64,000 nucleotides of DNA from contig MSGY01000015.1 in assembly GCA_001940895.1 (NCBI GenBank), forward strand, positions 85,332 to 149,331. Direction: 5' to 3'. The notes under the pieces are model-generated. The model saw only the letters and a list, made by a program, of their open reading frames with translations. It was not told where the DNA came from and did no database searches. Below are positions 14,974 to 26,984 of this stretch, piece after piece. Numbering within the stretch: the stretch's first letter is position 1; each line of letters begins with the position of its first letter. Position numbers and translations under genes: made by a program. Source of the stretch: Christensenellaceae bacterium Phil10. Its GTDB lineage: Bacteria > Bacillota > Clostridia > Christensenellales > CAG-917.

Positions 14974-16953
14974 ATGAAAAACAGAAAAAAACTGCTTGCA
15001 GTATCGGTATTGCTTGTTTTCGTTTTCACGATGATTTTTGCGGTTGCCTGCAAAAAGGTCGATGACGGCAAAAACAACGGCAACGTCGCCGACAGATACG
15101 ACGACGAAAGCGTGTATACCGATCTGAGCGTCCGCGAATCGACGGGTACTCACGGCGCGGTAGCTTCCGCTAACGCATACGCAAGTAAAGCGGGTTACGA
15201 CATTCTCAAAGCGGGCGGAAACGCCTTCGACGCGGCCGTTGCCGTGGCTTTCGCAATCGGCGTAACCGAGCCTTATGCGTCGGGTATCGGCGGAGGTGGC
15301 GTTATGACCGCTTACGACGCGAAGACCCAACAGTATCATTATTATAATTTCCGCGAATTCCTCTCTGCGGCAAGCACTCTCGAAGCTTTCCAGAAAGCAG
15401 GCCTTTCTTCCATTCCCACCACCGGTATTTATTCGGTCGGCGTTCCTACTGAAGTTGCGGGTCTGTGCGCGATAGTCGAAGATTTCGGAACGAAAACGCT
15501 TGCCGAAGTAATAGCTCCCGCTATCAAACTCGCTGCCGAAGGATTTACCATCAAGGAAGGTCTTGCAAACGAAATTTCCAACGGTTACGACAACTTCCAG
15601 ATGTACGGAAGCGACGAGGCTTTCAATATTTACTCGGATGAGGACGGAATCGAGGCTCTGAAAACCGGCGACACTCTGATTCAGTCAAACTATGCCGAAG
15701 TTCTTAAATCCATTGCCGAGAACGGCGCGGCCGGTTTCTACACCGGATGGGTTGCTGACGCTATCGTTGCCGCTTCCGACGCAAATAACGGTTTTATCAC
15801 GCACGACGACCTTATTTACGCAATGAACAACTATCCCAAGAAGGAACAGCCCCTGCACACCAACGTGTTCGGTTATGACATTTACACTTCCAATACTCCT
15901 TCTTCGGGCGGCGTAATACTTATCGAGGCGCTTAACGCAATCGAATATTACTGCAGGAAAAACAACACGACATTGCAACAAATCGGCTACAACAGCGCCG
16001 AATATCTGCACGTTATCAACACCGCGATGCAGCTCGGTTTTGCCGACAAACGCAAATACGTCGCCGACAACGACGTAAGCCCTGTTACCGGCACGCAATT
16101 CGTTAACGTACCTCTCGAAGGTCTTGCAAGCAAAGAATACGCACAACAGCGTTGGGACGCAATTTATAAAGAAAACGACGTGTTTATCGCAACCAGCGGT
16201 TACGACTGGGGCGGAGCTTCCCGCAGCGATAACTACAGCGGCCGTTACGCCGACGACCTGAGCCCGTTCACGTTCCAGACCACGGGCGGCGCTACTTCCG
16301 CCGAAGCGGTGGACGTAGACGACAGCGGCACGACTTCCTTCTCCGTTGCGGACAGCGAAGGCAACATCGTAAGTTTCACTCAGACACTCAATCACTTCTG
16401 GGGTTCCTACATTATGCCCGAGAACTGCGGCTTTATGCTTAACGACCAGTGCACGAGCTTTACCATCAAGACGCCCGCACAGAGCGTTCACTACGTTGCT
16501 CCTTACAAACAGCCCGTATCGCACATTATGCCTACCATTATTCTTAAAGACGGCAAACCTTTCGCAACTCTCGGCTCGCCGGGCAGTATGAGAATTCCCG
16601 CGGCGGTTCTTCAGGTTGCTCTCAATATGATGGAATTCGGTATGGATATTCAGTCGGCAATCAATGCGGACAGAACTTACAACTATGCGGTATCGACGGC
16701 CGACAGCAACTCGATGTCGGGCGGAGCCACTTATCTCACGCATAAACTGATGTATCTCGAAACGTCGCAACTCGACGCCGCCACCGTCGATGCGTTGAAG
16801 GCAAAGAATTACTATATCGTCGAATACAAAAAGACGAATCTGTATTTCGGCGGCGTACAGGGCATTAAGTTCAATTACGACAACAACGGTAATTTCACAA
16901 GCATAACCGGCGGTGCCGACCCGCGCCGTGACGGTAAAGCGCTGGCTTACTAA
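14974..16953 (+). CDS. ggt: Gamma-glutamyltransferase family lipoprotein
   Basis: 659 aa. Signal peptide plus lipobox 'IFAVAC'. Motifs 'THGAVASANAYASKAGYDILKAGGNAFDAAVA', 'ASGIGGGG' and the nucleophile context 'DSGTTSFSVADSEGNIVSFTQTLN'. It starts 30 nt after citXG with RBS 'aaaggagag'. Confidence 0.85.
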   Translation: MKNRKKLLAVSVLLVFVFTMIFAVACKKVDDGKNNGNVADRYDDESVYTDLSVRESTGTHGAVASANAYASKAGYDILKAGGNAFDAAVAVAFAIGVTEPYASGIGGGGVMTAYDAKTQQYHYYNFREFLSAASTLEAFQKAGLSSIPTTGIYSVGVPTEVAGLCAIVEDFGTKTLAEVIAPAIKLAAEGFTIKEGLANEISNGYDNFQMYGSDEAFNIYSDEDGIEALKTGDTLIQSNYAEVLKSIAENGAAGFYTGWVADAIVAASDANNGFITHDDLIYAMNNYPKKEQPLHTNVFGYDIYTSNTPSSGGVILIEALNAIEYYCRKNNTTLQQIGYNSAEYLHVINTAMQLGFADKRKYVADNDVSPVTGTQFVNVPLEGLASKEYAQQRWDAIYKENDVFIATSGYDWGGASRSDNYSGRYADDLSPFTFQTTGGATSAEAVDVDDSGTTSFSVADSEGNIVSFTQTLNHFWGSYIMPENCGFMLNDQCTSFTIKTPAQSVHYVAPYKQPVSHIMPTIILKDGKPFATLGSPGSMRIPAAVLQVALNMMEFGMDIQSAINADRTYNYAVSTADSNSMSGGATYLTHKLMYLETSQLDAATVDALKAKNYYIVEYKKTNLYFGGVQGIKFNYDNNGNFTSITGGADPRRDGKALAY

Positions 16954-17231: not shown

Positions 17232-18971
17232 ATGTTTTTACAGATTGAACTTTTATACTTTGTACTGATGATAGCGACGTTCATAGCGTTGGTTCTCGCG
17301 GCCAAAATGCCGTCGGGACTCAGCCTTATGATTTCCGCAATCGTCGGTGCTGTATTCTCCGCGATAATATCCAAGACTCCCTTCGAACTCAGATACTTTG
17401 TCGAAGGCGCTTTCGGATATTTCGATACGATTCTGGTTATTACGGCGGCCATGATATTTATGGGGGCCATGCAGGCGAGCGGCGCGCTTGAATACATAAG
17501 CGCATTGCTCGTAAGGACGTTCAGACGCGTACCGGCATTGTTGCTTATATCTTTTATGATAATAATAATGTTCCCCGCTATGGTTACCGGCTCTTCGCTG
17601 GCCTCCGCCATTTCCGCGGGTGCCCTCGTCGCGCCGATAATGATTAAGTGGGGCATCCCCAAATCCAAGACAGGCGCAATCGTAGCGCTCGGTTCCGTAC
17701 TCGGAATGGTGGCGCCTCCCGTCAACGTACCCGCAATGGTTATCTGTGACGTCGTTGATATTCCATATACGGGATTTACTCTCCCGCTTCTGTTGCTTGC
17801 ATTCCCGCTTGCGATCGTAGGAGTTCTTCTTATAGGAAGAAAATACGTCAAACCCTTATCGAAAGAAGAGGTCGATTGCGTTGTCGATACGTCCGTTCTC
17901 AAAGAACTCAACTGGACGGTCTGCATTCCCGTAATCGTGCTTATCGCTTTGATTATCTGCGAGATTATATGGCCGAAAATTTTCGGAAGTCTCGCGATGC
18001 CCGCTATGTTCCTTATCGCAACTATAATCAGTTTCTTCGTCGGAAGAAAACTTCCGTTCTGGGTAAGCCCCAAAAAGCGTAAAGCAAAAGCCGAAGAAGA
18101 GGGGATTACCGTCGATGAATACAAAGAAAGAATCGATAAGAACGAAAAACCCGACAGCGTCGTCGGAGTGTTCAGCCAGGGCGTACACAAATCGTTTTCG
18201 GCAATGGGACTTCTGATGGGCGTAGGCATGTTTATGGAAGTAATCGCATCAAACGGCGTGCGCGGATTCTTCGTTATCAACGCCATAAGCCTTCCCAACG
18301 CATGGAAATACGTCGGAATGGCGCTGACTCTGCCCATATTCGGCGGTGTATCGGCATTCGGCTCCGCGTCCATTCTCGGCGGTCCGTTCGTAATGGCTCT
18401 TAACGGAATTGCGGACAATATTATCGTTACGGCAGGTCTGTCGTTGCTTGCCGCCGTCGGCGAATTTTTGCCGCCTACGGCAATGTCCGCCTCGTTCGCG
18501 GCAAATATCGTCGGCGAAAAGAAATGGAGTAAAATTACCAAAGCCGCTTTACCCGCTCTTCTCGTAATGTACGTTTACGGCATAATTTTCGTGCTCGCTT
18601 TCGGAAAGGCGGTGCAGATGAAATCGATGGGCGCGAATACCACGCTTTATCTGTTCCTCATTATGATTGCGATAGCAATTCTGTTTGCGGTAATATGGGA
18701 AGTTCTCGTTCGTAAGGTGCGTTTCTTCAGCAAATGCGCATATCAGGTAGGCACCGAAAGCACGCCTTTCGGAGTCGAAGGCGAAAACGCCGCATCGGAA
18801 AACGTAGAGGAAGCGGTTGAACGGATAGCCGACGAAAGTCCTCTTGCGGTAACCGACGAAAAAACGGACGAAAACGCCGATACCCCCGCTCCTGCCGTGA
18901 GCGAAGAAGAGGTAAGCCCCGACGACGAGGGCGCAGACAATAACGATAATACCGATAAGGAGGATAAATAA
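17232..18971 (+). CDS. DctM-like (TRAP large-subunit type) permease with an inserted charged loop and acidic C-terminal tail; no DctQ/DctP partner nearby
   Basis: 579 aa, polytopic. The segment 'FGYFDTILVITAAMIFMGAMQASGALEYISALLV...MVTGSSLASAISAGALVAPIMIKWG...GSVLGMVAPPVNVPAMV' follows the DctM pattern (G..dsf.ll.IpfFilaG..m..sG...rl...SGS..A...A.G....P.M...G...PPS.p). RBS 'aggagg'. Confidence 0.6.
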   Translation: MFLQIELLYFVLMIATFIALVLAAKMPSGLSLMISAIVGAVFSAIISKTPFELRYFVEGAFGYFDTILVITAAMIFMGAMQASGALEYISALLVRTFRRVPALLLISFMIIIMFPAMVTGSSLASAISAGALVAPIMIKWGIPKSKTGAIVALGSVLGMVAPPVNVPAMVICDVVDIPYTGFTLPLLLLAFPLAIVGVLLIGRKYVKPLSKEEVDCVVDTSVLKELNWTVCIPVIVLIALIICEIIWPKIFGSLAMPAMFLIATIISFFVGRKLPFWVSPKKRKAKAEEEGITVDEYKERIDKNEKPDSVVGVFSQGVHKSFSAMGLLMGVGMFMEVIASNGVRGFFVINAISLPNAWKYVGMALTLPIFGGVSAFGSASILGGPFVMALNGIADNIIVTAGLSLLAAVGEFLPPTAMSASFAANIVGEKKWSKITKAALPALLVMYVYGIIFVLAFGKAVQMKSMGANTTLYLFLIMIAIAILFAVIWEVLVRKVRFFSKCAYQVGTESTPFGVEGENAASENVEEAVERIADESPLAVTDEKTDENADTPAPAVSEEEVSPDDEGADNNDNTDKEDK

Positions 18972-19136
18972 ATGCAAGTTTATTACACAATATTGCAGGT
19001 AGTATATATTGCCTTTGCCGTGGTTATAGCCGCGCTTATCGGTTGGAACGTATTCAAGTCCAAAAAAATTACGGATAAAGTAATCGGCGCAATCGCTCTG
19101 ATAATGTTTATCCTTCGCATTCTGTTGATTAAGTAG
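18972..19136 (+). CDS. 54-aa two-helix membrane miniprotein (absent from the supplied ORF track)
   Basis: ATG directly abuts the permease stop codon. It translates to MQVYYTILQVVYIAFAVVIAALIGWNVFKSKKITDKVIGAIALIMFILRILLIK, which is two hydrophobic helices joined by a basic loop. Confidence 0.45.
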   Translation: MQVYYTILQVVYIAFAVVIAALIGWNVFKSKKITDKVIGAIALIMFILRILLIK

Positions 19137-19152: not shown

Positions 19153-20709
19153 ATGAAAAAAATACGCGAAAAGAAAGTACGTGAAAAGAAAGTGCGCGAA
19201 AAGAAAGAACGCGTGAAAAAAATCAACTTGCCCAAACTCGATCTGAATAACAAACGCAACAACATAATCGTAACGAGCGTTATAGGCGTGCTTGCGCTGG
19301 TCGTAACCATCGTAACGGGCGTACAGTTTACGAAATTCCGCAATTTCAACGCAGAGTTTTACACCGGAAACGTAGACGAGATTCAGTCTTACAGCAAGTA
19401 TTCGAAATATCTTGCCGGCACTTCGGGCGACGCTCCCATCTATATCCTTTACGGCGATAACAACACAGTGGCGGTAGTAAGAGCTTCCGACGCCGACAAA
19501 TACGATACCATCGATAAAGTGCTCGAAGCCGACGCACGCGTCGTCAAAGGCGGCGTCGTAAATATCGACAAAGAAGAACTCGATATTTCCGCAATCGCGA
19601 AAGCCGACGCCGCAACCGCGATAGACGAGGTTAAAAACGGAACTTCGGATATCGCCATAGTAACATACGCCGACTACAGGGCGGTAAGAGATACCTATAC
19701 CGACCTTACCGTTGCGAAGGCCGAAATCGAAGCGGTGCCGAGCATACTCGTTATGGGAGGAACCCACCCCAACGAACCCTCCGGACAACTTGCCGCGACG
19801 ATGTTCCTCGAAAACGCAAAAGTCAAACGCGGCGTTCTGTACGTAGTTAACGAAGTGAATCGCAGCGCGTATACCCATTCGCAACCGCAGGAAGCGACGT
19901 CCTGGTATTACGAGCTTCAGACTGCGAGCGGTCAGACCCGTACGTTCAAATACGGCTCCCGCGCGACGAATACGGTTGACCAGTGGCCTACGCCCGACGT
20001 CTACACTCATTCTTCGGGACAACAGCTGTCGTCAAGCGAGGTACGCAATATCAACCGTTCGTATCCCGGCGACGAGAAGGGCACTTACACCGAAAAACTG
20101 TCCTACGCCATAACCCAACTCGTTTTGCAAAACGATATTACCATGGTCGTCGACTTGCACGAGGCGTCGCCCGAGTACATCACCATTAACGCAATCGTTG
20201 CGCACGACGACGCACTCGAACTTGCATCGGACGCAAAAATGTGGACGCTTGACGACGTAATGAATATCGGCGTTGAAGTTTCTCCCGCAACGTTGCACGG
20301 ACTTACTCACCGCGACCTCGGAGACTACACCTATGCGTACGTATTTCTTGCCGAAACGTCAAATGCGTCGCAGGGAAAACTTCGCGGAAAATTCTCGCCC
20401 GACCTTATCACTTATAAGGAAAAGGATAAATTCTACGAATATGCAAAAGAATACGACGAGAAACACGGCACTAAACTTCTGTACGCTCCCGCCGCCGATA
20501 TCGACGAAAGGGTGGCAAGACACACTTTTACCGTCTCGGCGCTGATTAAATCATTTAACGATATGGGTTGCGTATCCCGTACGGTAAACGTAGGAAAGAT
20601 AGGCGAGCGCGAAGGAAGATATCTCGGGAAACTCGAAATCGAAATGGTTCCCGGATACGAAGACATAATGGATAACGGGGTCGGCTATTATCTGCACGAT
20701 CTTGATTAA
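19153..20709 (+). CDS. Membrane-anchored M14-like / AstE-AspA-type zinc hydrolase
   Basis: 518 aa. A basic N-terminal tail, one TM helix ('IIVTSVIGVLALVVTIVTGV'), then 'LVMGGTHPNEPSG' (HxxE), 'RNINRSYPG', 'VVDLHEASPE' and 'LAETSN'. RBS 'ggggagg'. Confidence 0.65.
   Translation: MKKIREKKVREKKVREKKERVKKINLPKLDLNNKRNNIIVTSVIGVLALVVTIVTGVQFTKFRNFNAEFYTGNVDEIQSYSKYSKYLAGTSGDAPIYILYGDNNTVAVVRASDADKYDTIDKVLEADARVVKGGVVNIDKEELDISAIAKADAATAIDEVKNGTSDIAIVTYADYRAVRDTYTDLTVAKAEIEAVPSILVMGGTHPNEPSGQLAATMFLENAKVKRGVLYVVNEVNRSAYTHSQPQEATSWYYELQTASGQTRTFKYGSRATNTVDQWPTPDVYTHSSGQQLSSSEVRNINRSYPGDEKGTYTEKLSYAITQLVLQNDITMVVDLHEASPEYITINAIVAHDDALELASDAKMWTLDDVMNIGVEVSPATLHGLTHRDLGDYTYAYVFLAETSNASQGKLRGKFSPDLITYKEKDKFYEYAKEYDEKHGTKLLYAPAADIDERVARHTFTVSALIKSFNDMGCVSRTVNVGKIGEREGRYLGKLEIEMVPGYEDIMDNGVGYYLHDLD
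19165..19209 (+). repeat. Three tandem 15-bp repeats encoding (REKKV)x3
   Basis: cgcgaaaagaaagta / cgtgaaaagaaagtg / cgcgaaaagaaagaa, in frame at the 5' end of the 19153 gene. Confidence 0.85.
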
Positions 20710-20738
20710 TAAAAGTAAATAAAAAAATGGAGGTATTT

Positions 20739-21386
20739 ATGAAAAAAGTAATTACTATCATCGTTTCCGTATTGATGATTATGACGCTTGCCGTTTCTTT
20801 TGCAGCATGCAACAAAGACACCGGCAACGGCGGCAATAACGGCGGAAACACGGACGTAACGCCCAGTGCTCTCGACAAAACCGTCAGCGAAGCCGAACTT
20901 CAGAACATCGTAGGCGACGGCAAACTTTACGCAACGACCATCGGTCAGGCAGACCTTGCCGTTGTCAACAACCTTATCGTAAAAGCGGGCGTTGCCGCGG
21001 CAGATTACACCAGCAACAATATGCTTACCGCAGACCAGGTTGAAGACGGCTCCACGGTATTTATCGTAGTCGGCGCTTCGGGCAAAGGTCTCGGCGGAGC
21101 AGGAACGGACGCTGCGGCCGAACTCGTAAGAGCTAACGCCTTCCAGGCGAAAGCCGACAAAATCAACATCGTTTGCGTACACGTAGGCGGCTCCAACCGT
21201 CGCGGCGATACCAGCGACCCCACAATCAGAGTTATCGCAGGTTGCTCCAAAGTTATACTCGTAGTTGAAGAAGGTAACAGCGACGATCTCTTCACCGGCA
21301 TCGCAAACGACAACAGCATTCCTCTTTACGAGTACAGCAAATCGGCAAAGATGCTTGATTCCTTTAAATATTTGCTTGGCAAATAA
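20739..21386 (+). CDS. Lipoprotein of unknown family (paralogue of 27499..28170)
   Basis: I chose ATG 20739, after 'ggagg', over 20727. Lipobox 'SFAAC'. Conserved blocks 'KLYATTIGQ', 'VFIVVGASGKG' and 'VHVGGSNRRGDTSD'. Confidence 0.7.
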   Translation: MKKVITIIVSVLMIMTLAVSFAACNKDTGNGGNNGGNTDVTPSALDKTVSEAELQNIVGDGKLYATTIGQADLAVVNNLIVKAGVAAADYTSNNMLTADQVEDGSTVFIVVGASGKGLGGAGTDAAAELVRANAFQAKADKINIVCVHVGGSNRRGDTSDPTIRVIAGCSKVILVVEEGNSDDLFTGIANDNSIPLYEYSKSAKMLDSFKYLLGK

Positions 21387-21396
21387 CAGGTAACTT

Positions 21397-22296
21397 ATGA
21401 AGAAAAAATCGACTTATCTTTTAATAATAAGTTTGGTTTTTATCATCGGATTGACGTCGGTTCTGACGGCGTGCGGGGCGAACGGTGGGAATGACGCCGA
21501 CGCTTCGAAGCCGTCAAATCCGACAGGCGACGATAATCGGGAACCGTTAACGGTAGAGCATATCACGACGAAGATGCTTGCCGGCACGCGCGACGAAACC
21601 GAAGTGCACCGCTTCGTGACTAACAGAGAAGGACCCAGAATCGTAATAGTAGGCGGTACTCACGGCGACGAGAAAGCGGGTTGGAGCGCGGCGTTGAAAC
21701 TTGTGAAAATTCTCGATTCCGAAGAGAAGAGGCGAGACGATATGTGCGGCGAAATTCTGATAATTCCGCAGGTCAATATCAACGCCGACAAAGCGGGAAA
21801 AAGATATTTGTCAACCGTCGACGGAGTCGCCTATTCCGACTTTAACCGTTCTTTCCCCAACGGACGCGAAAGCGGTGCGGCCGCCGCGACAATCAAAATT
21901 TCGGACGCCGTGATAGAAATTATCGAAACGTTCGAACCCGATTACGTGGTAGACCTGCACGAATCCCGCAAGAGCTGGGAAGACGGATATCTCGGAAACA
22001 GCGTAATCTCCGATAACGAACCTTTCTTCATTGAAGATATGCTGATAAATTACAATGATAACTACATTGAAGAAGGCGAACCGGATTTTATCAATCAACC
22101 CGCCGTGAAAAACGGAAGCTTCAGCAAGTATTTTTCGGCGAGATATCCCGATAAAGTAGTGTTTACTATCGAGACGAACAGAGAATACGCGGGAGGGACG
22201 GACACTATCGCCCTCAGCGTACGAGTAAGGCAACAGCTGAATATTCTCAATTCCATGTTCGATTTCGCGTGGCATCCGGAAAGAATCGAAGCATAA
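21397..22296 (+). CDS. Lipoprotein M14-like / AstE-AspA-type zinc hydrolase
   Basis: 299 aa. Lipobox 'LTAC'. Motifs 'IVGGTHGDEKAG' (HxxE), 'SDFNRSFPNG', 'VVDLHESR' and 'FTIETN'. Confidence 0.7.
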   Translation: MKKKSTYLLIISLVFIIGLTSVLTACGANGGNDADASKPSNPTGDDNREPLTVEHITTKMLAGTRDETEVHRFVTNREGPRIVIVGGTHGDEKAGWSAALKLVKILDSEEKRRDDMCGEILIIPQVNINADKAGKRYLSTVDGVAYSDFNRSFPNGRESGAAAATIKISDAVIEIIETFEPDYVVDLHESRKSWEDGYLGNSVISDNEPFFIEDMLINYNDNYIEEGEPDFINQPAVKNGSFSKYFSARYPDKVVFTIETNREYAGGTDTIALSVRVRQQLNILNSMFDFAWHPERIEA

Positions 22297-22417: not shown

Positions 22418-25189
22418 ATGAAGAAGAAAGTCTTATTATGTCTTGTCGTCATATTGGTACTTTCGTTTTCTCTTTCGTTGTTCGCAGCCTGCAAAAAGGA
22501 TGAGAATCCTTCTGGCAACGACAACGGGGGAACCACCGCTCCGTCCATTGCCGAAATATTATCCGACGGTAAAACCGATACGGAATATACCGTTGAGGGC
22601 GTAGTATTCGGCAAGAAAAACGACGGATTTCTTATTTCCGACGGGGAGAACGCCATCTTTATCGAAAGCAACGAAAACGTTGCCGCAGGCGATAAAGTCA
22701 GCGTAAAAGGCACGCTTAAACTCAACACCGAGAAAGCGCCCGTCCTCGGAAACGCACAAGTAACGGTCAGCGCAAACGGCCAGACCGTTGTATCACCCGT
22801 TAAAGGATTACTCACCGACGTAACGAAACTTGCGGCAACCCGCAAAAATTTCTATAAATACGTCGAAGCCACCGGTTTCGTAAGATTTAACGCCGAAACG
22901 AGCGTATATACTCTTGAATCGGGCAGCAGCAGAGTAATTATCGACACCAACGGCAGAGATGCCGATTTCGAAGAATTCGTTGACAAAAAAGTTACGTTGT
23001 CTTTCGTCAACACCGGTTTCACCACGTCCTGGAAGGTATTGTATCTCGGCGACGTTCAGAAATTCGAAGTAAATCTTGCCGAAGTTAAAGACGCTATTTT
23101 CGAAAGCGTCGGAAAACAACTTCCCGAAGAGGTTTACGTAGGAATCGAACTTCCCGTCAACTATGCGGACGAACCCGACGTAACCTTTACCTGGAGCGTA
23201 GTAACGGCTGACGCACCCATCACCATTGTCGACAACGAAGCAAACGTTTCCGAAGTTTCGGAAGACACGACCGTTACCATCAAACTTACGCTTACCGCTC
23301 CCGAATCGCAGACTGCCGAAAAGACCTTCGAGGTTTTGGTCAAGAAAGCTACTAACGTTGCCATTGCCGACATCGCGGCATACGAAGGCACCGACGTCAT
23401 CGTATTTTCGGGCACCGTTTATGCAAAAGGATACAGCCAGACCAAAGACAGAACGGCTCTTATGGTCAGCGACGGAGCAAATCACTACACCGCAGTCGAT
23501 ATTGCCAAAACCGATTTCTTCAAATACACCGTAGGCGATAAAGTTAAAGTTGCGGGCACCAAAGCGGTTGTCGTTGACGTCAACACCGTATCGGCTGACA
23601 GCATTATCGTAACCGAAGCCGCTCCCGAAGATTTCACAATCGACTTCGAATCTCTCGATTATACCGAACTCAGAACCGACGACGCTACCACTTATACGGG
23701 TCTCGTCGACAACTATCTTGCAAACACCAACAAACTTTACAAGATAACCGCTCCCTTTATGGTATCCAGCGGTAATACGTCTTCCAACTTCATCCGTTTC
23801 GGTCATGACGTGAATGCCGGTAACGGTTATGAGTATAAGGTTGGCGAAGAAACGAAAAAACGTTATTTCGTGTTCTCGCGCAATACCATGGACGACACCG
23901 TATCCTGGCTGCAGAGCGAACTTGACGTTCCCAACCTTGCGGACAAAGCGGTAAAATACGAAGCTTATACCTTCTATGCGTTTGCGATGTTCTCGAGCGC
24001 CGAAACCTGGCAGTTCGTACTTCCCGGCGAATTCGCGGTTGCCACCGACAACGCCTTCCTTGCCAATAAGGAATTGACTAACAAGATGGACGCATACGAT
24101 ATCGTCGTAGCAAAAGAAGCGGGCAGCATCGATTTACCCAAGACTCTTAAATACGGCGGAGAAGTAACTTGGACGCAGGATAAGGACGTATTCGACCTCG
24201 ATACGGGCGCATTTACCGCCGTAACGGCAAACACTGCGGTTACGCTTACCGCAACTTATACGGTAAAAGGCGCAACCGAGCCCACTATCAAGACTTTCCT
24301 TGTTACTCTGCTTCCTGACGAACCCAAGTCTGTTACCGTTTCCGAGGCTCTTGCAGATACTTCGGGCGGTTATTTGTATGTAGAAGGCGTTGTCGTCGGA
24401 CTTATTCCCTCTCATACGGGCAGCGGTAGTTCGCTGGGCGTTTACGTTTCGGACGGCAACAAAGTCGCTCCCGTTGAATTTGGCGGAGAACTTGCAATTA
24501 ACGGTAAATACTCAGCTGTAATCGGTGAAACTGAAGTAAAAGTCGGAACCGGCATCAAATTCTCAAAAATCAAAGTTAACGATAAAAAACTCGTTGCAAG
24601 CGACAAGACGACGTGCACTATCACCGGCAACGTAGACGTATCCGGCAACTGGTTGCACCCCGCCGAAGATTCTGTTACGACGATTAACAACGCAACCGAG
24701 ATGGCGGAATACGTCGGCAAATTTAATGATTTCGGGACCAGCAGTCAAAGAGACTATTCTATCGTGAAAGTCGTGGCAACCGAAGAGAATCCCATTTATA
24801 TCGGGGCAAGAAACGCCTACTTTATGATGTTTTCTTATCTCAGCGCCGATACGCTTACCAGTACCAGCAACGATGCGTTTGCATATATTGCGGGTGATAA
24901 TTCCACAAAATCGTGGATAGGTTCTCATACGGGAGCCGCACGTTATACTATCGGCGAACAATGGTTGCTTGACAATACGCCTTATACAGCGTTAAACGGT
25001 GACGATTATAGCGGGAACTGGAAATATGAAGCGCTTAAAGACGCAGCAAACGGAGCAAGCACTTATAAATTCACAGGTTCGTTCTATATGATTTTCGAGT
25101 ATATGGGCTCCGCAAAATATCCGTATGTTTACTGCGGAATTCTCGGCGCGTCCTTCAATCTCACGAGAGTAGTTGAAGAAGCAGCATAA
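22418..25189 (+). CDS. 923-aa surface lipoprotein with repeated OB-fold-like and Ig-like modules
   Basis: Lipobox 'LFAAC', RBS 'aggagg'. Four modules follow the pattern V.G.V....g..l.D....i.........GdkV.V.G (for example 'YTVEGVVFGKKNDGFLISDGENAIFIESNENVAAGDKVSVKGTL'). Two beta-rich segments resemble bacterial Ig-like domains. Confidence 0.7.
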   Translation: MKKKVLLCLVVILVLSFSLSLFAACKKDENPSGNDNGGTTAPSIAEILSDGKTDTEYTVEGVVFGKKNDGFLISDGENAIFIESNENVAAGDKVSVKGTLKLNTEKAPVLGNAQVTVSANGQTVVSPVKGLLTDVTKLAATRKNFYKYVEATGFVRFNAETSVYTLESGSSRVIIDTNGRDADFEEFVDKKVTLSFVNTGFTTSWKVLYLGDVQKFEVNLAEVKDAIFESVGKQLPEEVYVGIELPVNYADEPDVTFTWSVVTADAPITIVDNEANVSEVSEDTTVTIKLTLTAPESQTAEKTFEVLVKKATNVAIADIAAYEGTDVIVFSGTVYAKGYSQTKDRTALMVSDGANHYTAVDIAKTDFFKYTVGDKVKVAGTKAVVVDVNTVSADSIIVTEAAPEDFTIDFESLDYTELRTDDATTYTGLVDNYLANTNKLYKITAPFMVSSGNTSSNFIRFGHDVNAGNGYEYKVGEETKKRYFVFSRNTMDDTVSWLQSELDVPNLADKAVKYEAYTFYAFAMFSSAETWQFVLPGEFAVATDNAFLANKELTNKMDAYDIVVAKEAGSIDLPKTLKYGGEVTWTQDKDVFDLDTGAFTAVTANTAVTLTATYTVKGATEPTIKTFLVTLLPDEPKSVTVSEALADTSGGYLYVEGVVVGLIPSHTGSGSSLGVYVSDGNKVAPVEFGGELAINGKYSAVIGETEVKVGTGIKFSKIKVNDKKLVASDKTTCTITGNVDVSGNWLHPAEDSVTTINNATEMAEYVGKFNDFGTSSQRDYSIVKVVATEENPIYIGARNAYFMMFSYLSADTLTSTSNDAFAYIAGDNSTKSWIGSHTGAARYTIGEQWLLDNTPYTALNGDDYSGNWKYEALKDAANGASTYKFTGSFYMIFEYMGSAKYPYVYCGILGASFNLTRVVEEAA

Positions 25190-25323: not shown

Positions 25324-26118
25324 ATGCAAATTGAAAATTCGCAACCCATAGGAGTTTTCGATTCGGGAATAGGCGGACTTACCGTTCTCGAACAGTTGAT
25401 TAAAATATTTCCGCACGAAAATTTTTATTACGTGGCCGACCAGGGATATTGTCCTTACGGGCCGAGACCTGCCGAATACGTATGCGAAAGAGTGGAAAAA
25501 ATAACCCGTCATATGGTTAACGAGGGTGTAAAGGCGATAGTAATTGCCTGCAATACGGCGTCTTTGCGCATTGCGAGCGCCCGCGCCGTTACCGACATAC
25601 CCGTTGTCAGCGTAATTCCCCCGACGTGTATGAGGGCGGTTGAAACCACGAAAAACAAAAAAGTCGCAGTCCTTGCGACGCAGGCGACGATAAACAGCGG
25701 CACTTATCAGAACATGCTTAAGGAAAACGGAGTAACCCCCGTACCCCTTGCATGCGGAGAATTCGTCGATTTTCTGGAAAACGACGACCTTGACAATCCT
25801 TACGCCTATAAACTCGTGGCGGACAAACTCGCCTCGATAAAAGATGAAGGCTTTGACACCCTGATACACGCCTGTACTCATTTCAGCCTGCTCGAACCGC
25901 AGATGAGGGCCGTCCTCGGCGATATAAATTACGTCAATTGCGGTACGCCTACCGGAGAATACCTGAAAAAGTATTTCGACGAAAATAATATGGCAACAAA
26001 CGCAACCGATAAAGGTCGCGTAAGAATATTCACGACGGGAGAGGTTGACGGCGCTCTTCGTACGATGCGTTGGTTCAAAGCCGAACACGACCCCGTCGCC
26101 CACGTCGACATTAAATAA
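25324..26118 (+). CDS. murI: Glutamate racemase
   Basis: 264 aa. 'IGVFDSGIGGLTVL', with 'IVIACNTAS' and 'IHACTHFSLL' as the two catalytic Cys contexts. Confidence 0.9.
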   Translation: MQIENSQPIGVFDSGIGGLTVLEQLIKIFPHENFYYVADQGYCPYGPRPAEYVCERVEKITRHMVNEGVKAIVIACNTASLRIASARAVTDIPVVSVIPPTCMRAVETTKNKKVAVLATQATINSGTYQNMLKENGVTPVPLACGEFVDFLENDDLDNPYAYKLVADKLASIKDEGFDTLIHACTHFSLLEPQMRAVLGDINYVNCGTPTGEYLKKYFDENNMATNATDKGRVRIFTTGEVDGALRTMRWFKAEHDPVAHVDIK

Positions 26119-26133
26119 TCAACAGGAGATATT

Positions 26134-26973
26134 ATGCGTACAATCAATTTAAGCGACGTTACGTCAAAAGTAAAAGAGATGTTCATCGACGCTTGCGAGA
26201 ATATTCCGCAAAACGTCCTTGAAACCATAGAAAACGCCTGTAAAGCCGAGGAATCGCCTCTCGGCAAAGACGTACTCGGCAAAATCGTAGAAAACGACTT
26301 GCTTGCAAGAAAGGAACATCTGCCCATATGTCAGGATACCGGAATTGCCGTGGTTATGCTTACGATAGGCTCGGAAGTTACTTTCAAAGGCGACATTTAC
26401 GAGGCTGTGAACGAAGGAGTCCGTCAGGCTTATACCGAAGGATATCTTCGCAAATCGGTTGTCCGTCATCCCCTCGACAGGGTGAACACGCGCGACAATA
26501 CGCCCGCTATCGTTCACGTTAAGCTTACCGAAGGCGACGTTTTCAGAATCGACGTCGCGCCGAAAGGCGGCGGAAGCGAAAATATGAGCGCTATCAGAAT
26601 GCTCGTCCCCGCAGACGGGGAAGCCGGCATTAAAAAATTCATTCTCGATACCGTGCTTCACGCAAGCGGCAAACCCTGCCCGCCGATAATCCTCGGCATA
26701 GGCATCGGAGGCAACTTCGAAAAATCCGCTATGATGGCGAAAGAAGCGCTGTTCCGCGAAATAGACGACGAGTCGCCCGACCCAATTGCAAGACGCCTTG
26801 AAAAGGAAATCAGGGAAGAAGTCAACAAACTCGGCGTAGGTCCTATGGGCTTCGGCGGTACCGAAACCTGCCTTGCCGTAAAAGTTAACGTGGCCCCTTG
26901 CCATATCGCAAGCCTTCCCGTGGCCGTAAACATTCAATGCCACGCCGCAAGACACAAGTCCTGCAATCTTTAA
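26134..26973 (+). CDS. Fe-S hydro-lyase, tartrate/fumarate family, alpha subunit (class I fumarase type; candidate mesaconase)
   Basis: 279 aa. 'LPICQDTGIAVV', 'APKGGGSENMS' and 'PPIILGIGIGG' are typical of FumA/TtdA N-terminal-domain proteins. Confidence 0.85.
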   Translation: MRTINLSDVTSKVKEMFIDACENIPQNVLETIENACKAEESPLGKDVLGKIVENDLLARKEHLPICQDTGIAVVMLTIGSEVTFKGDIYEAVNEGVRQAYTEGYLRKSVVRHPLDRVNTRDNTPAIVHVKLTEGDVFRIDVAPKGGGSENMSAIRMLVPADGEAGIKKFILDTVLHASGKPCPPIILGIGIGGNFEKSAMMAKEALFREIDDESPDPIARRLEKEIREEVNKLGVGPMGFGGTETCLAVKVNVAPCHIASLPVAVNIQCHAARHKSCNL

Positions 26974-26984
26974 GAGGTGATAAT

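Follow-up and report, generated by a model that had tools for sequence, protein, structure and literature searches.

What is the function of a small lipoprotein that is encoded twice in one genomic region, once between two hydrolase genes and once at the head of the poly-gamma-glutamate synthase (pgs) genes? The question is raised by a stretch of 64,000 nucleotides (nt) from Christensenellaceae bacterium Phil10 (contig MSGY01000015.1), referred to here as the window. The two genes are:

20739-21386, plus strand: copy A, DUF6305 lipoprotein of 215 amino acids (aa); PF19823 E=1.5e-28; lipobox Cys24
27499-28170, plus strand: copy B, DUF6305 lipoprotein of 223 aa, the first gene of the pgs block; PF19823 E=7.3e-23

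Both belong to the Pfam family DUF6305, which in 165 surveyed loci is a fixed part of a module formed with a gamma-glutamyltransferase (GGT), a permease, a membrane protein of about 48 aa and an M14/AstE-like hydrolase. The explanation that we favour, and to which we give about even chances, is that DUF6305 is a non-catalytic subunit capturing glutamate or gamma-glutamyl compounds within a gamma-glutamyl salvage module.

Two paralogues of a large family

The genes of the region form a tightly packed series on the plus strand. The start codon of copy A is ATG 20739, which GGAGG precedes by 5 nt; another ATG further upstream, at 20727, falls within this ribosome-binding site. Copy A is flanked by two genes of AstE/AspA-like (M14-type) hydrolases, as was noticed when the letters alone were read without database searches (the sequence-only reading). 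The start of copy B is TTG 27499, situated 35 nt within the end of the preceding fumarase-beta-like gene, and its TAA stop (28168-28170) overlaps the pgsB start ATG 28163 (ATGATTAA), with GGGAGG 8 nt 5' of the latter. The overlap and the GGGAGG make translational coupling of copy B and pgsB plausible, in line with the earlier description of copy B as the coupled first gene of the pgs block.

The BLASTP alignment of the two proteins has 57 identities in 183 positions (31%) and E=6e-24. Since this value is far beyond chance, A and B are true paralogues by sequence; the homology suggested earlier from a hand count of identities thus agrees with the formal alignment. The blocks listed at that time as shared are real, being the conserved family motifs TxxGQ, GxSxKG, ExxR(A), HxGGxxRRGxxSD and G(N/D)xD, the last read then as a terminal GN, and all of them are found in both copies. 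What has to be given up is the notion of a private two-member family. The PF19823 hidden Markov model (HMM) scores 99.8 bits for A and 81.3 bits for B against a gathering cut-off of 25 bits, and a profile search in 1.84 billion representative proteins yields at least 724 clusters (50% identity) at E<=1e-3 and 203 at E<=1e-30. A scan of A and B against NCBIfam gave no match. That the family lacks a known function was stated correctly: it is catalogued as a domain of unknown function, and we found no paper mentioning DUF6305 or TIGR04332 (a pgs-linked family considered below), and none describing this gene cluster.

In both copies an N-terminal hydrophobic signal leads to a lipobox-like Cys (...SFAAC24 in A, ...AFCAC30 in B). 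The Phe at -3 is atypical, and lipidation is a prediction from the sequence. The Cys is invariant in an alignment of 27 sequences and at least 90% conserved in one of 141. A regular-expression search finds a lipobox in the first 45 residues of 182 out of 204 collected members, while ordinary signal peptides are found in most of the remainder. Judging by these signals, DUF6305 is an exported protein, usually lipid-anchored.

Copy B represents a distinct orthologous group. Its relatives at 53% and 36% identity hold the same position, with an 8-nt overlap, in the order fumarase-like alpha and beta subunits, DUF6305, pgsB, pgsC, TIGR04332 protein, response regulator (RR), histidine kinase (HK). 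Copy B is a lineage-specific paralogue, a duplicate recruited to the pgs operon.

Predicted fold and conserved residues

The AlphaFold2 models of A (predicted local distance difference test score, pLDDT, 85; above 90 in the domain) and B (pLDDT 83) consist of five beta-alpha units each and contain a single predicted domain of about 150 aa. This is the Rossmann/flavodoxin-like alpha/beta fold that had been guessed from the alternation of strands and helices. In both models the conserved motifs stand directly after strands 1-4, and loops after strands are the usual ligand site in Rossmann/flavodoxin-like folds. All 141 aligned relatives match PF19823. Across these sequences (about 30% identity), K116, E128 and R131 in copy A numbering are invariant, and conservation is 90% or higher at T66, G69, Q70, G112, S114, G117, H148, G150, G151, R154, R155, G156, D160 and D182. 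Among them, K, three R, D, E, S, T and Q stand at strand ends beside two Gly-rich loops; in the models, this polar and basic set would provide the chemistry for binding amino-acid carboxylates. The domain as a whole is acidic, with a median isoelectric point (pI) of 4.7 and a net charge of -7, which favours a specific pocket over a coat on a polyanion; a polyanion-coating role, considered as a candidate, is weakened accordingly.

Searches for relatives outside the family gave little. In a Pfam scan of A and B at E<=0.01 DUF6305 was the sole match, with no hit to DctP (PF03480), TAXI/NMT1-like or TctC (PF03401) models, and neither Pfam nor NCBIfam matched A or B to PgsA/CapA (PGA_cap). Sequence and profile searches of the PDB with DUF6305 returned only signal-peptide or designed-repeat artefacts. 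Foldseek comparisons of A and B with the PDB, and of A with BFVD, gave nothing below E=1e-3 and TM-scores of at most 0.41, the best weak matches (E of 2e-3 or worse) being cutinase, SGNH esterases and SIS domains. EIIBC-GUT_N, CetZ_C and Peptidase_S66 recur as weak Pfam matches among the 141 members, in 5-7 members each, none significant, and receptors of the DctP, TAXI or TctC type are absent from these recurrent matches. Kinship with glutamate racemase, S66 peptidase (hhalign probability 1%), the M14-like hydrolases, GGT or the response regulator was rejected, as hhalign aligned only the lipoprotein signal peptides. The sequence-only reading had also suspected shared ancestry with the bitopic pgs protein. 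This does not hold: hhalign of the DUF6305 profile (141 sequences) against one of TIGR04332 (52 sequences) gave a probability of 0.95% and E=0.058, and the short segment aligned was not the one cited, so that this kinship is likewise rejected.

The domain occurs in diverse architectures. In four loci (L041 9995-11689, L052 4230-5996, L057 5499-7262, L075 380-2236), a lipoprotein gene directly upstream of the permease encodes three near-identical DUF6305 domains strung together by Ala/Gly/Pro linkers. DUF6305 is fused to an M14-like hydrolase of the 518-aa type present in the window (P0105), to TPR and a TctC solute receptor (P0195), and to immunoglobulin (Ig)-like surface domains (P0054, P0058, P0090), and two copies accompany a dockerin in P0102. 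Such tandem and fusion architectures look typical of binding modules.

The conserved gene module

Upstream and downstream of copy A, the window contains the following genes of the module:

14974-16953, plus strand: gamma-glutamyltransferase lipoprotein (GGT/CapD family); PF01019 E=1e-120, TIGR00066 above cut-off
17232-18971, plus strand: ion-transporter-superfamily permease, distantly DctM-like; PF06808 E=2.6e-12 over the full model, weak TRAP_fused and DcuC matches
18972-19136, plus strand: two-helix membrane protein, 54 aa, with the conserved C-terminal end LRxLLIK; detected with an HMM built from 48-54 aa genes that follow the permease
19153-20709, plus strand: membrane-anchored AstE/AspA-like (M14-type) zinc hydrolase, 518 aa, with an N-terminal transmembrane anchor; weak PF24827 and M99 matches
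21397-22296, plus strand: second AstE/AspA-like hydrolase, a lipoprotein of 299 aa; PF24827 E=3e-14

Conservation of this arrangement was assessed in two surveys. The first, made with an alignment of the core subfamily, covered one genome for each GTDB species and gave 377 confirmed matches, of which 78 loci were kept; the second covered JGI metagenomes with the divergent signal-peptide subfamily and gave at least 407 matches, of which 80 loci were kept. Both were seeded from DUF6305 motifs with the best 80 matches retained in each, and each is biased to one subfamily. The flanks extend to at most 10 kb, hence statements on missing pgs genes refer to this neighbourhood. Genes were labelled with purpose-built HMMs made from the window and the first loci.

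The order DUF6305, permease, small protein, membrane-anchored hydrolase is exact in 62 of the 65 core loci with enough downstream sequence, the three exceptions being trivial, and permease, small protein and hydrolase follow each other in 117 of 121 loci. Of the 78 core loci, 73 contain GGT; where the flanks are full (36 loci), GGT is found in 35, HK in 35, RR homologues accompany the module in 35 as well, and PgsB and the TIGR04332 protein are present in 32. All 23 divergent loci that extend for 5 kb or more to either side have permease, hydrolase and GGT at a distance of up to 5 kb. The direct downstream neighbour of the 171 DUF6305 genes is the permease in 132 cases, GGT in 12 and pgsB in two; the direct upstream neighbour is GGT in 79 cases and RR in 17. 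Further look-ups of diverse homologues showed the same neighbourhood every time. The proposed tie to gamma-glutamyl metabolism is borne out by these counts, and in the surveyed loci the family was not found spread broadly apart from pgs or gamma-glutamyl genes.

The small protein, whose gene was overlooked in the sequence-only reading, is a two-helix membrane hairpin of 47-54 aa with no match in Pfam or NCBIfam. Its C-terminus hardly varies, reading IPLxLRxLMIK in most loci and ILRILLIK in the window, where its gene begins straight after the permease stop codon. The permease shows weak similarity to DctM, TRAP-fused, DcuC and NhaC families. The hydrolase has an N-terminal membrane anchor and zinc-site motifs GGTHxNE and DLHEASPEYP, at least 90% conserved in 114 orthologues. 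The closest solved relatives of the second hydrolase in the window belong to the AstE/AspA/DoeB family (2qj8, 3cdx, 6twl). Two proteins of the window are longer than elsewhere: the permease (579 aa versus about 425) has a long acidic C-terminal tail, and the membrane-anchored hydrolase (518 aa versus about 381) has a Lys/Arg/Glu-rich repeat (KKVREKKVREKKERVKK) before its membrane anchor.

Distance matrices show a tighter correlation of DUF6305 with the permease (r=0.90) and the hydrolase (r=0.89) than with GGT (r=0.70), the respective mirror-tree partial correlations being 0.47, 0.41 and 0.09. This co-variation fits co-inheritance as one unit and sets GGT apart, with permease and hydrolase about equally eligible as the partner of DUF6305. 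Where additional DUF6305 genes occur, they tend to adjoin additional GGT copies (L036, L005, L052, L091): L036 has the order GGT-DUF6305-GGT-GGT-DUF6305-permease, and L091 has two permease cassettes and three DUF6305 genes. The carriers comprise hundreds of anaerobic species, including many Oscillospiraceae, Lachnospiraceae and Clostridium species, among them Clostridium symbiosum, as well as Fusibacter, Tissierellia, Christensenellales, an actinomycete (Varibaculum), one spirochaete and one Fusobacterium. Common inhabitants of the gut are found among the Oscillospiraceae, Lachnospiraceae and Christensenellales that carry it, and C. symbiosum is another.

The pgs block that starts with copy B continues as follows:

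28163-29275, plus strand: PgsB, poly-gamma-glutamate synthase ligase subunit; TIGR04012 E=8e-103, above cut-off; ATG after GGGAGG
29275-29724, plus strand: PgsC; TIGR04011 E=3e-31, PF14102
29721-30872, plus strand: bitopic TIGR04332 "poly-gamma-glutamate system protein"; TIGR04332 E=2e-84
30841-33294, plus strand: response regulator and sensor histidine kinase, seen as open reading frames (ORFs)

The link of the family to pgs genes, claimed earlier, stands in part. It is strong for the core loci, as given above, and weak for the divergent ones, where PgsB was found in only five of 14 long-flank loci. Pgs genes are missing within about 10 kb in nine of these 14 and in four of the 36 core loci, the set of GGT, permease and hydrolase being intact; in the divergent loci lacking them the flanks consist of unrelated housekeeping genes. 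The PgsB-PgsC-TIGR04332 set is thus a frequent but non-obligate neighbour, the fixed partners of DUF6305 being the permease, the small protein, the hydrolase and GGT. In all these pgs loci the TIGR04332 protein replaces PgsA/CapA; no solved structure is related to it by sequence, nor does any Pfam domain in it reach the threshold.

The glutamate-fermentation setting

Genes of glutamate catabolism surround the module. The segment 5740-14943 (plus strand) encodes MutL, glutamate mutase E, methylaspartate ammonia-lyase, citrate/citramalate-lyase-like (CitE- and CitF-like) subunits, a lyase ligase and CitXG. Further genes lie between the module and copy B:

25324-26118, plus strand: Asp/Glu racemase-family protein, probable glutamate racemase; PF01177 E=3e-21
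26134-27533, plus strand: class-I fumarase-like alpha and beta subunits, probable mesaconase; PF05681 E=3e-111, PF05683 E=9e-59

The fumarase-like pair is probably a mesaconase because the neighbouring genes are those of the methylaspartate pathway. Together with the racemase, they would constitute the methylaspartate route by which glutamate is fermented; established knowledge of this route underlies the assignment, and the specificities of the enzymes are presumed from it. The same linkage is seen in L085 and L086. By gene content, the module of the window is embedded in a glutamate-catabolic super-operon, a setting that suggests glutamate as the product imported.

A proposed capture subunit for gamma-linked glutamate

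Capture of a ligand is favoured because DUF6305 stands directly before the permease, because it forms tandem and fusion architectures, because a basic and polar pocket is set in an acidic domain, and because the context is centred on glutamate. We infer that the domain binds glutamate or a gamma-glutamyl compound, is not catalytic and hands its ligand on to the permease. A ligand common to both copies, either glutamate or a gamma-glutamyl chain, had already been suggested and is still the best guess.

The process may be described as follows. GGT and the membrane-anchored M14/AstE-like hydrolase or hydrolases would cleave gamma-glutamyl substrates outside the cell, these being poly-gamma-glutamate (PGA) of own or foreign origin or gamma-glutamyl peptides. 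DUF6305 would bind either glutamate, or a short product of the gamma-glutamyl type, or the free end of a chain, in a putative pocket at the C-terminal edge of the parallel beta-sheet, made up of the nearly invariant residues, that is, the three invariant and fourteen highly conserved positions listed above. The ligand would then be passed to the DctM-like permease and its 48-aa partner in the manner of a TRAP receptor. In this organism, the imported glutamate might be racemised and fermented by the methylaspartate pathway encoded around the module. In the pgs operon, the same binding site of copy B could hold or sense the emerging end of the polymer.

Within this explanation, delivery of a small ligand to the permease seems somewhat likelier than presentation of oligomers or of the polymer to the hydrolases, and each of the two, taken alone, is given less than even chances. 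We also regard it as possible, though not probable, that DUF6305 is a new class of single-domain extracytoplasmic solute receptor in a hydrolase-coupled TRAP-like importer, composed of DUF6305, the ion-transporter-superfamily permease, the 48-aa subunit and the M14-type hydrolase, with glutamate from PGA or gamma-glutamyl peptides as the cargo. If true, the binding-protein-dependent secondary transporters DctP-TRAP, TAXI-TRAP and TTT would be joined by another type, widespread in gut and sediment anaerobes.

Several observations weigh against a role in capture. A single alpha/beta unit of 150 aa is unlike the two-lobed receptors of TRAP, TAXI, TTT and ABC systems, and does not match their Pfam models. 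The permease is only distantly DctM-like, and most carriers of the ion-transporter superfamily work without a receptor. The approximately 17 nearly invariant polar or Gly positions would suit an active site equally well. In loci of the window type DUF6305 is located between hydrolases rather than before the permease, and in L170 it is carried by an Ig stalk, its neighbours being a GGT and a hydrolase that are stalked too, and no permease separates them; these layouts fit a hydrolase partner better than a permease partner. Uptake of monomers leaves the place of copy B in a synthase operon unexplained. Finally, as the surveys were seeded with DUF6305, the permease loci covered are those that have it.

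Alternative explanations

The main rival is that DUF6305 is an extracytoplasmic enzyme, a hydrolase, transferase or epimerase acting on gamma-glutamyl substrates, a possibility that we take seriously but do not expect to be correct. Catalysis would then be due to Ser114, situated at the predicted strand-to-helix turn, together with conserved His148 and with Asp160/Asp182 or Lys116. In the models, the three invariant residues and the 14 or so highly conserved ones are all at the C-terminal ends of strands, which is where Rossmann-like enzymes have their active sites. The motif around the Ser, however, is GxSxKG and not the GxSxG of a nucleophile elbow, and the Ser..His..Asp order is unlike that of alpha/beta and SGNH hydrolases. 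The best fold matches do include esterases (cutinase, SGNH) and SIS domains, but their Foldseek E-values are no better than 2e-3 and their TM-scores low, as given above; similarly, a few members have sub-threshold matches to the N-terminal domain of Peptidase_S66, whereas profile comparison with this family gave the negligible probability already cited. The hydrolase, dockerin and Ig-stalk fusions mirror the decoration of the neighbouring enzymes, and in some loci DUF6305 and stalked hydrolases are neighbours that no permease gene separates. On the other hand, three near-identical copies in tandem per lipoprotein would be unusual for a catalytic domain, and the module already has two or three types of hydrolases, with no missing reaction evident.

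Two other explanations seem improbable. DUF6305 might signal a gamma-glutamyl ligand to the adjacent histidine kinase as a co-sensor, or be a scaffold for permease and hydrolase that carries no substrate. The near-constant presence of HK and RR genes in full-flank core loci, the 17 DUF6305 genes directly preceded by RR, the position of copy B at the head of an operon ending with RR-HK, and the extracytoplasmic loop of about 130 aa predicted from sequence between two hydrophobic segments of the window kinase would all suit a co-sensor. Yet HK is present in only four of the 14 long-flank divergent loci, where permease, hydrolase and GGT are always there, the arrangement of the regulators differs between the two locus types (HK-RR or RR-HK), and the tandem repeats are left unexplained. 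Equally improbable is an accessory function specific to pgs, DUF6305 replacing PgsA/CapA or being a relative of TIGR04332 in synthesis or export of the polymer. The overlap of copy B with the pgsB start, preserved in orthologues down to 36% identity, and PgsB within 10 kb of most core loci speak for it. For the family as a whole it is already weak: the full set of GGT, permease and hydrolase is kept in the nine divergent and four core loci that have no pgs genes nearby, most pgs loci have no DUF6305 adjoining pgsB (the downstream neighbour in two cases out of 171), and there is no profile similarity to TIGR04332.

Comparison with known systems

The capture subunit proposed here resembles the DctP, TAXI and TctC receptors of TRAP and TTT transporters in that the gene of an exported or lipid-anchored soluble protein directly precedes those of a DctM-like permease and its small membrane partner. 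The substrates are likely carboxylates in both cases, and one DUF6305 member is fused to a TctC domain. It differs in being one flavodoxin/Rossmann-like domain of about 150 aa in the models, as opposed to a two-lobed hinge-bending fold of about 300 aa, and in matching no DctP, TAXI or TctC model. Moreover, DctQ has four helices but the small subunit, at 48 aa, only two, the permease is only remotely DctM-like, and a membrane-anchored hydrolase always belongs to the unit.

Importers of Gram-positive bacteria, for instance GlnPQ, may have tandem substrate-binding domains on flexible linkers, tethered to the membrane. The lipoproteins with two or three near-identical binding-type DUF6305 domains, flexible linkers and a membrane tether are similar; however, GlnPQ combines type-II periplasmic-binding-protein folds with an ABC transporter, whereas DUF6305 has another fold and goes with a secondary carrier. 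With the three-layer alpha/beta domains of the SIS and SGNH/cutinase types, DUF6305 shares five parallel beta-alpha units and, at the C-terminal strand ends, ligand-contacting loops, but the matches have E of 2e-3 or worse, TM-scores of about 0.3-0.4, no profile support and no shared motif.

The biology of PGA is known almost entirely from Bacillus, and we know of no counterpart of DUF6305, the permease or the 48-aa protein there. Like the Bacillus system (PgsBCA(E), PgdS, GGT/CapD), the loci described here have PgsB, PgsC and a polymer-linked enzyme of the GGT family. Unlike it, they have the TIGR04332 protein in place of the absent PgsA/CapA, and M14/AstE-like hydrolases in place of the absent NlpC/P60 hydrolase PgdS. 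According to a review (PMC4928254), GGT acts on PGA as an exo-hydrolase that frees glutamate, and CapD, of the same enzyme family, anchors the polymer.

The combination of PgsBC and TIGR04332, GGT, M14-like hydrolases, a novel permease with its micro-subunit, and DUF6305 sets these loci apart from Bacillus. Anaerobes probably use the module for degradation and import of gamma-linked glutamate, often beside genes for PGA synthesis. From the survey, DUF6305 gains a role open to testing and a few candidate ligands. As a receptor of a secondary carrier, it would widen the range of known solute-binding proteins; as an enzyme, it would be a new gamma-glutamyl-active fold. Either way, it marks loci of anaerobes that make, degrade and ferment gamma-linked glutamate.

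Loci of the window type

In the window, L003 and L085-L087, the module has a common rearranged layout: GGT, permease, small protein, hydrolase, DUF6305 (copy A), second hydrolase, Ig-containing lipoprotein, racemase. The Ig-containing gene of the window is

22418-25189, plus strand: lipoprotein of 923 aa with an atrophied Ig domain; weak aBig_2 match

Its homologues, 923-1292 aa long and with aBig_2, are conserved in window-type loci L003, L085, L087, L169 and L170. An Ig domain of the aBig_2 type is also fused to DUF6305 in P0054 and P0090, and in L170 the GGT and the hydrolase bear Listeria-Bacteroides surface repeats.

After the histidine kinase, an ORF of 160 aa (33306-33788, plus strand) has the position and length of the Cob_adeno_trans (PF01923) gene in the orthologous locus L168. 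If this match in position and length reflects identity, the gene would suit the B12 dependence of glutamate mutase.

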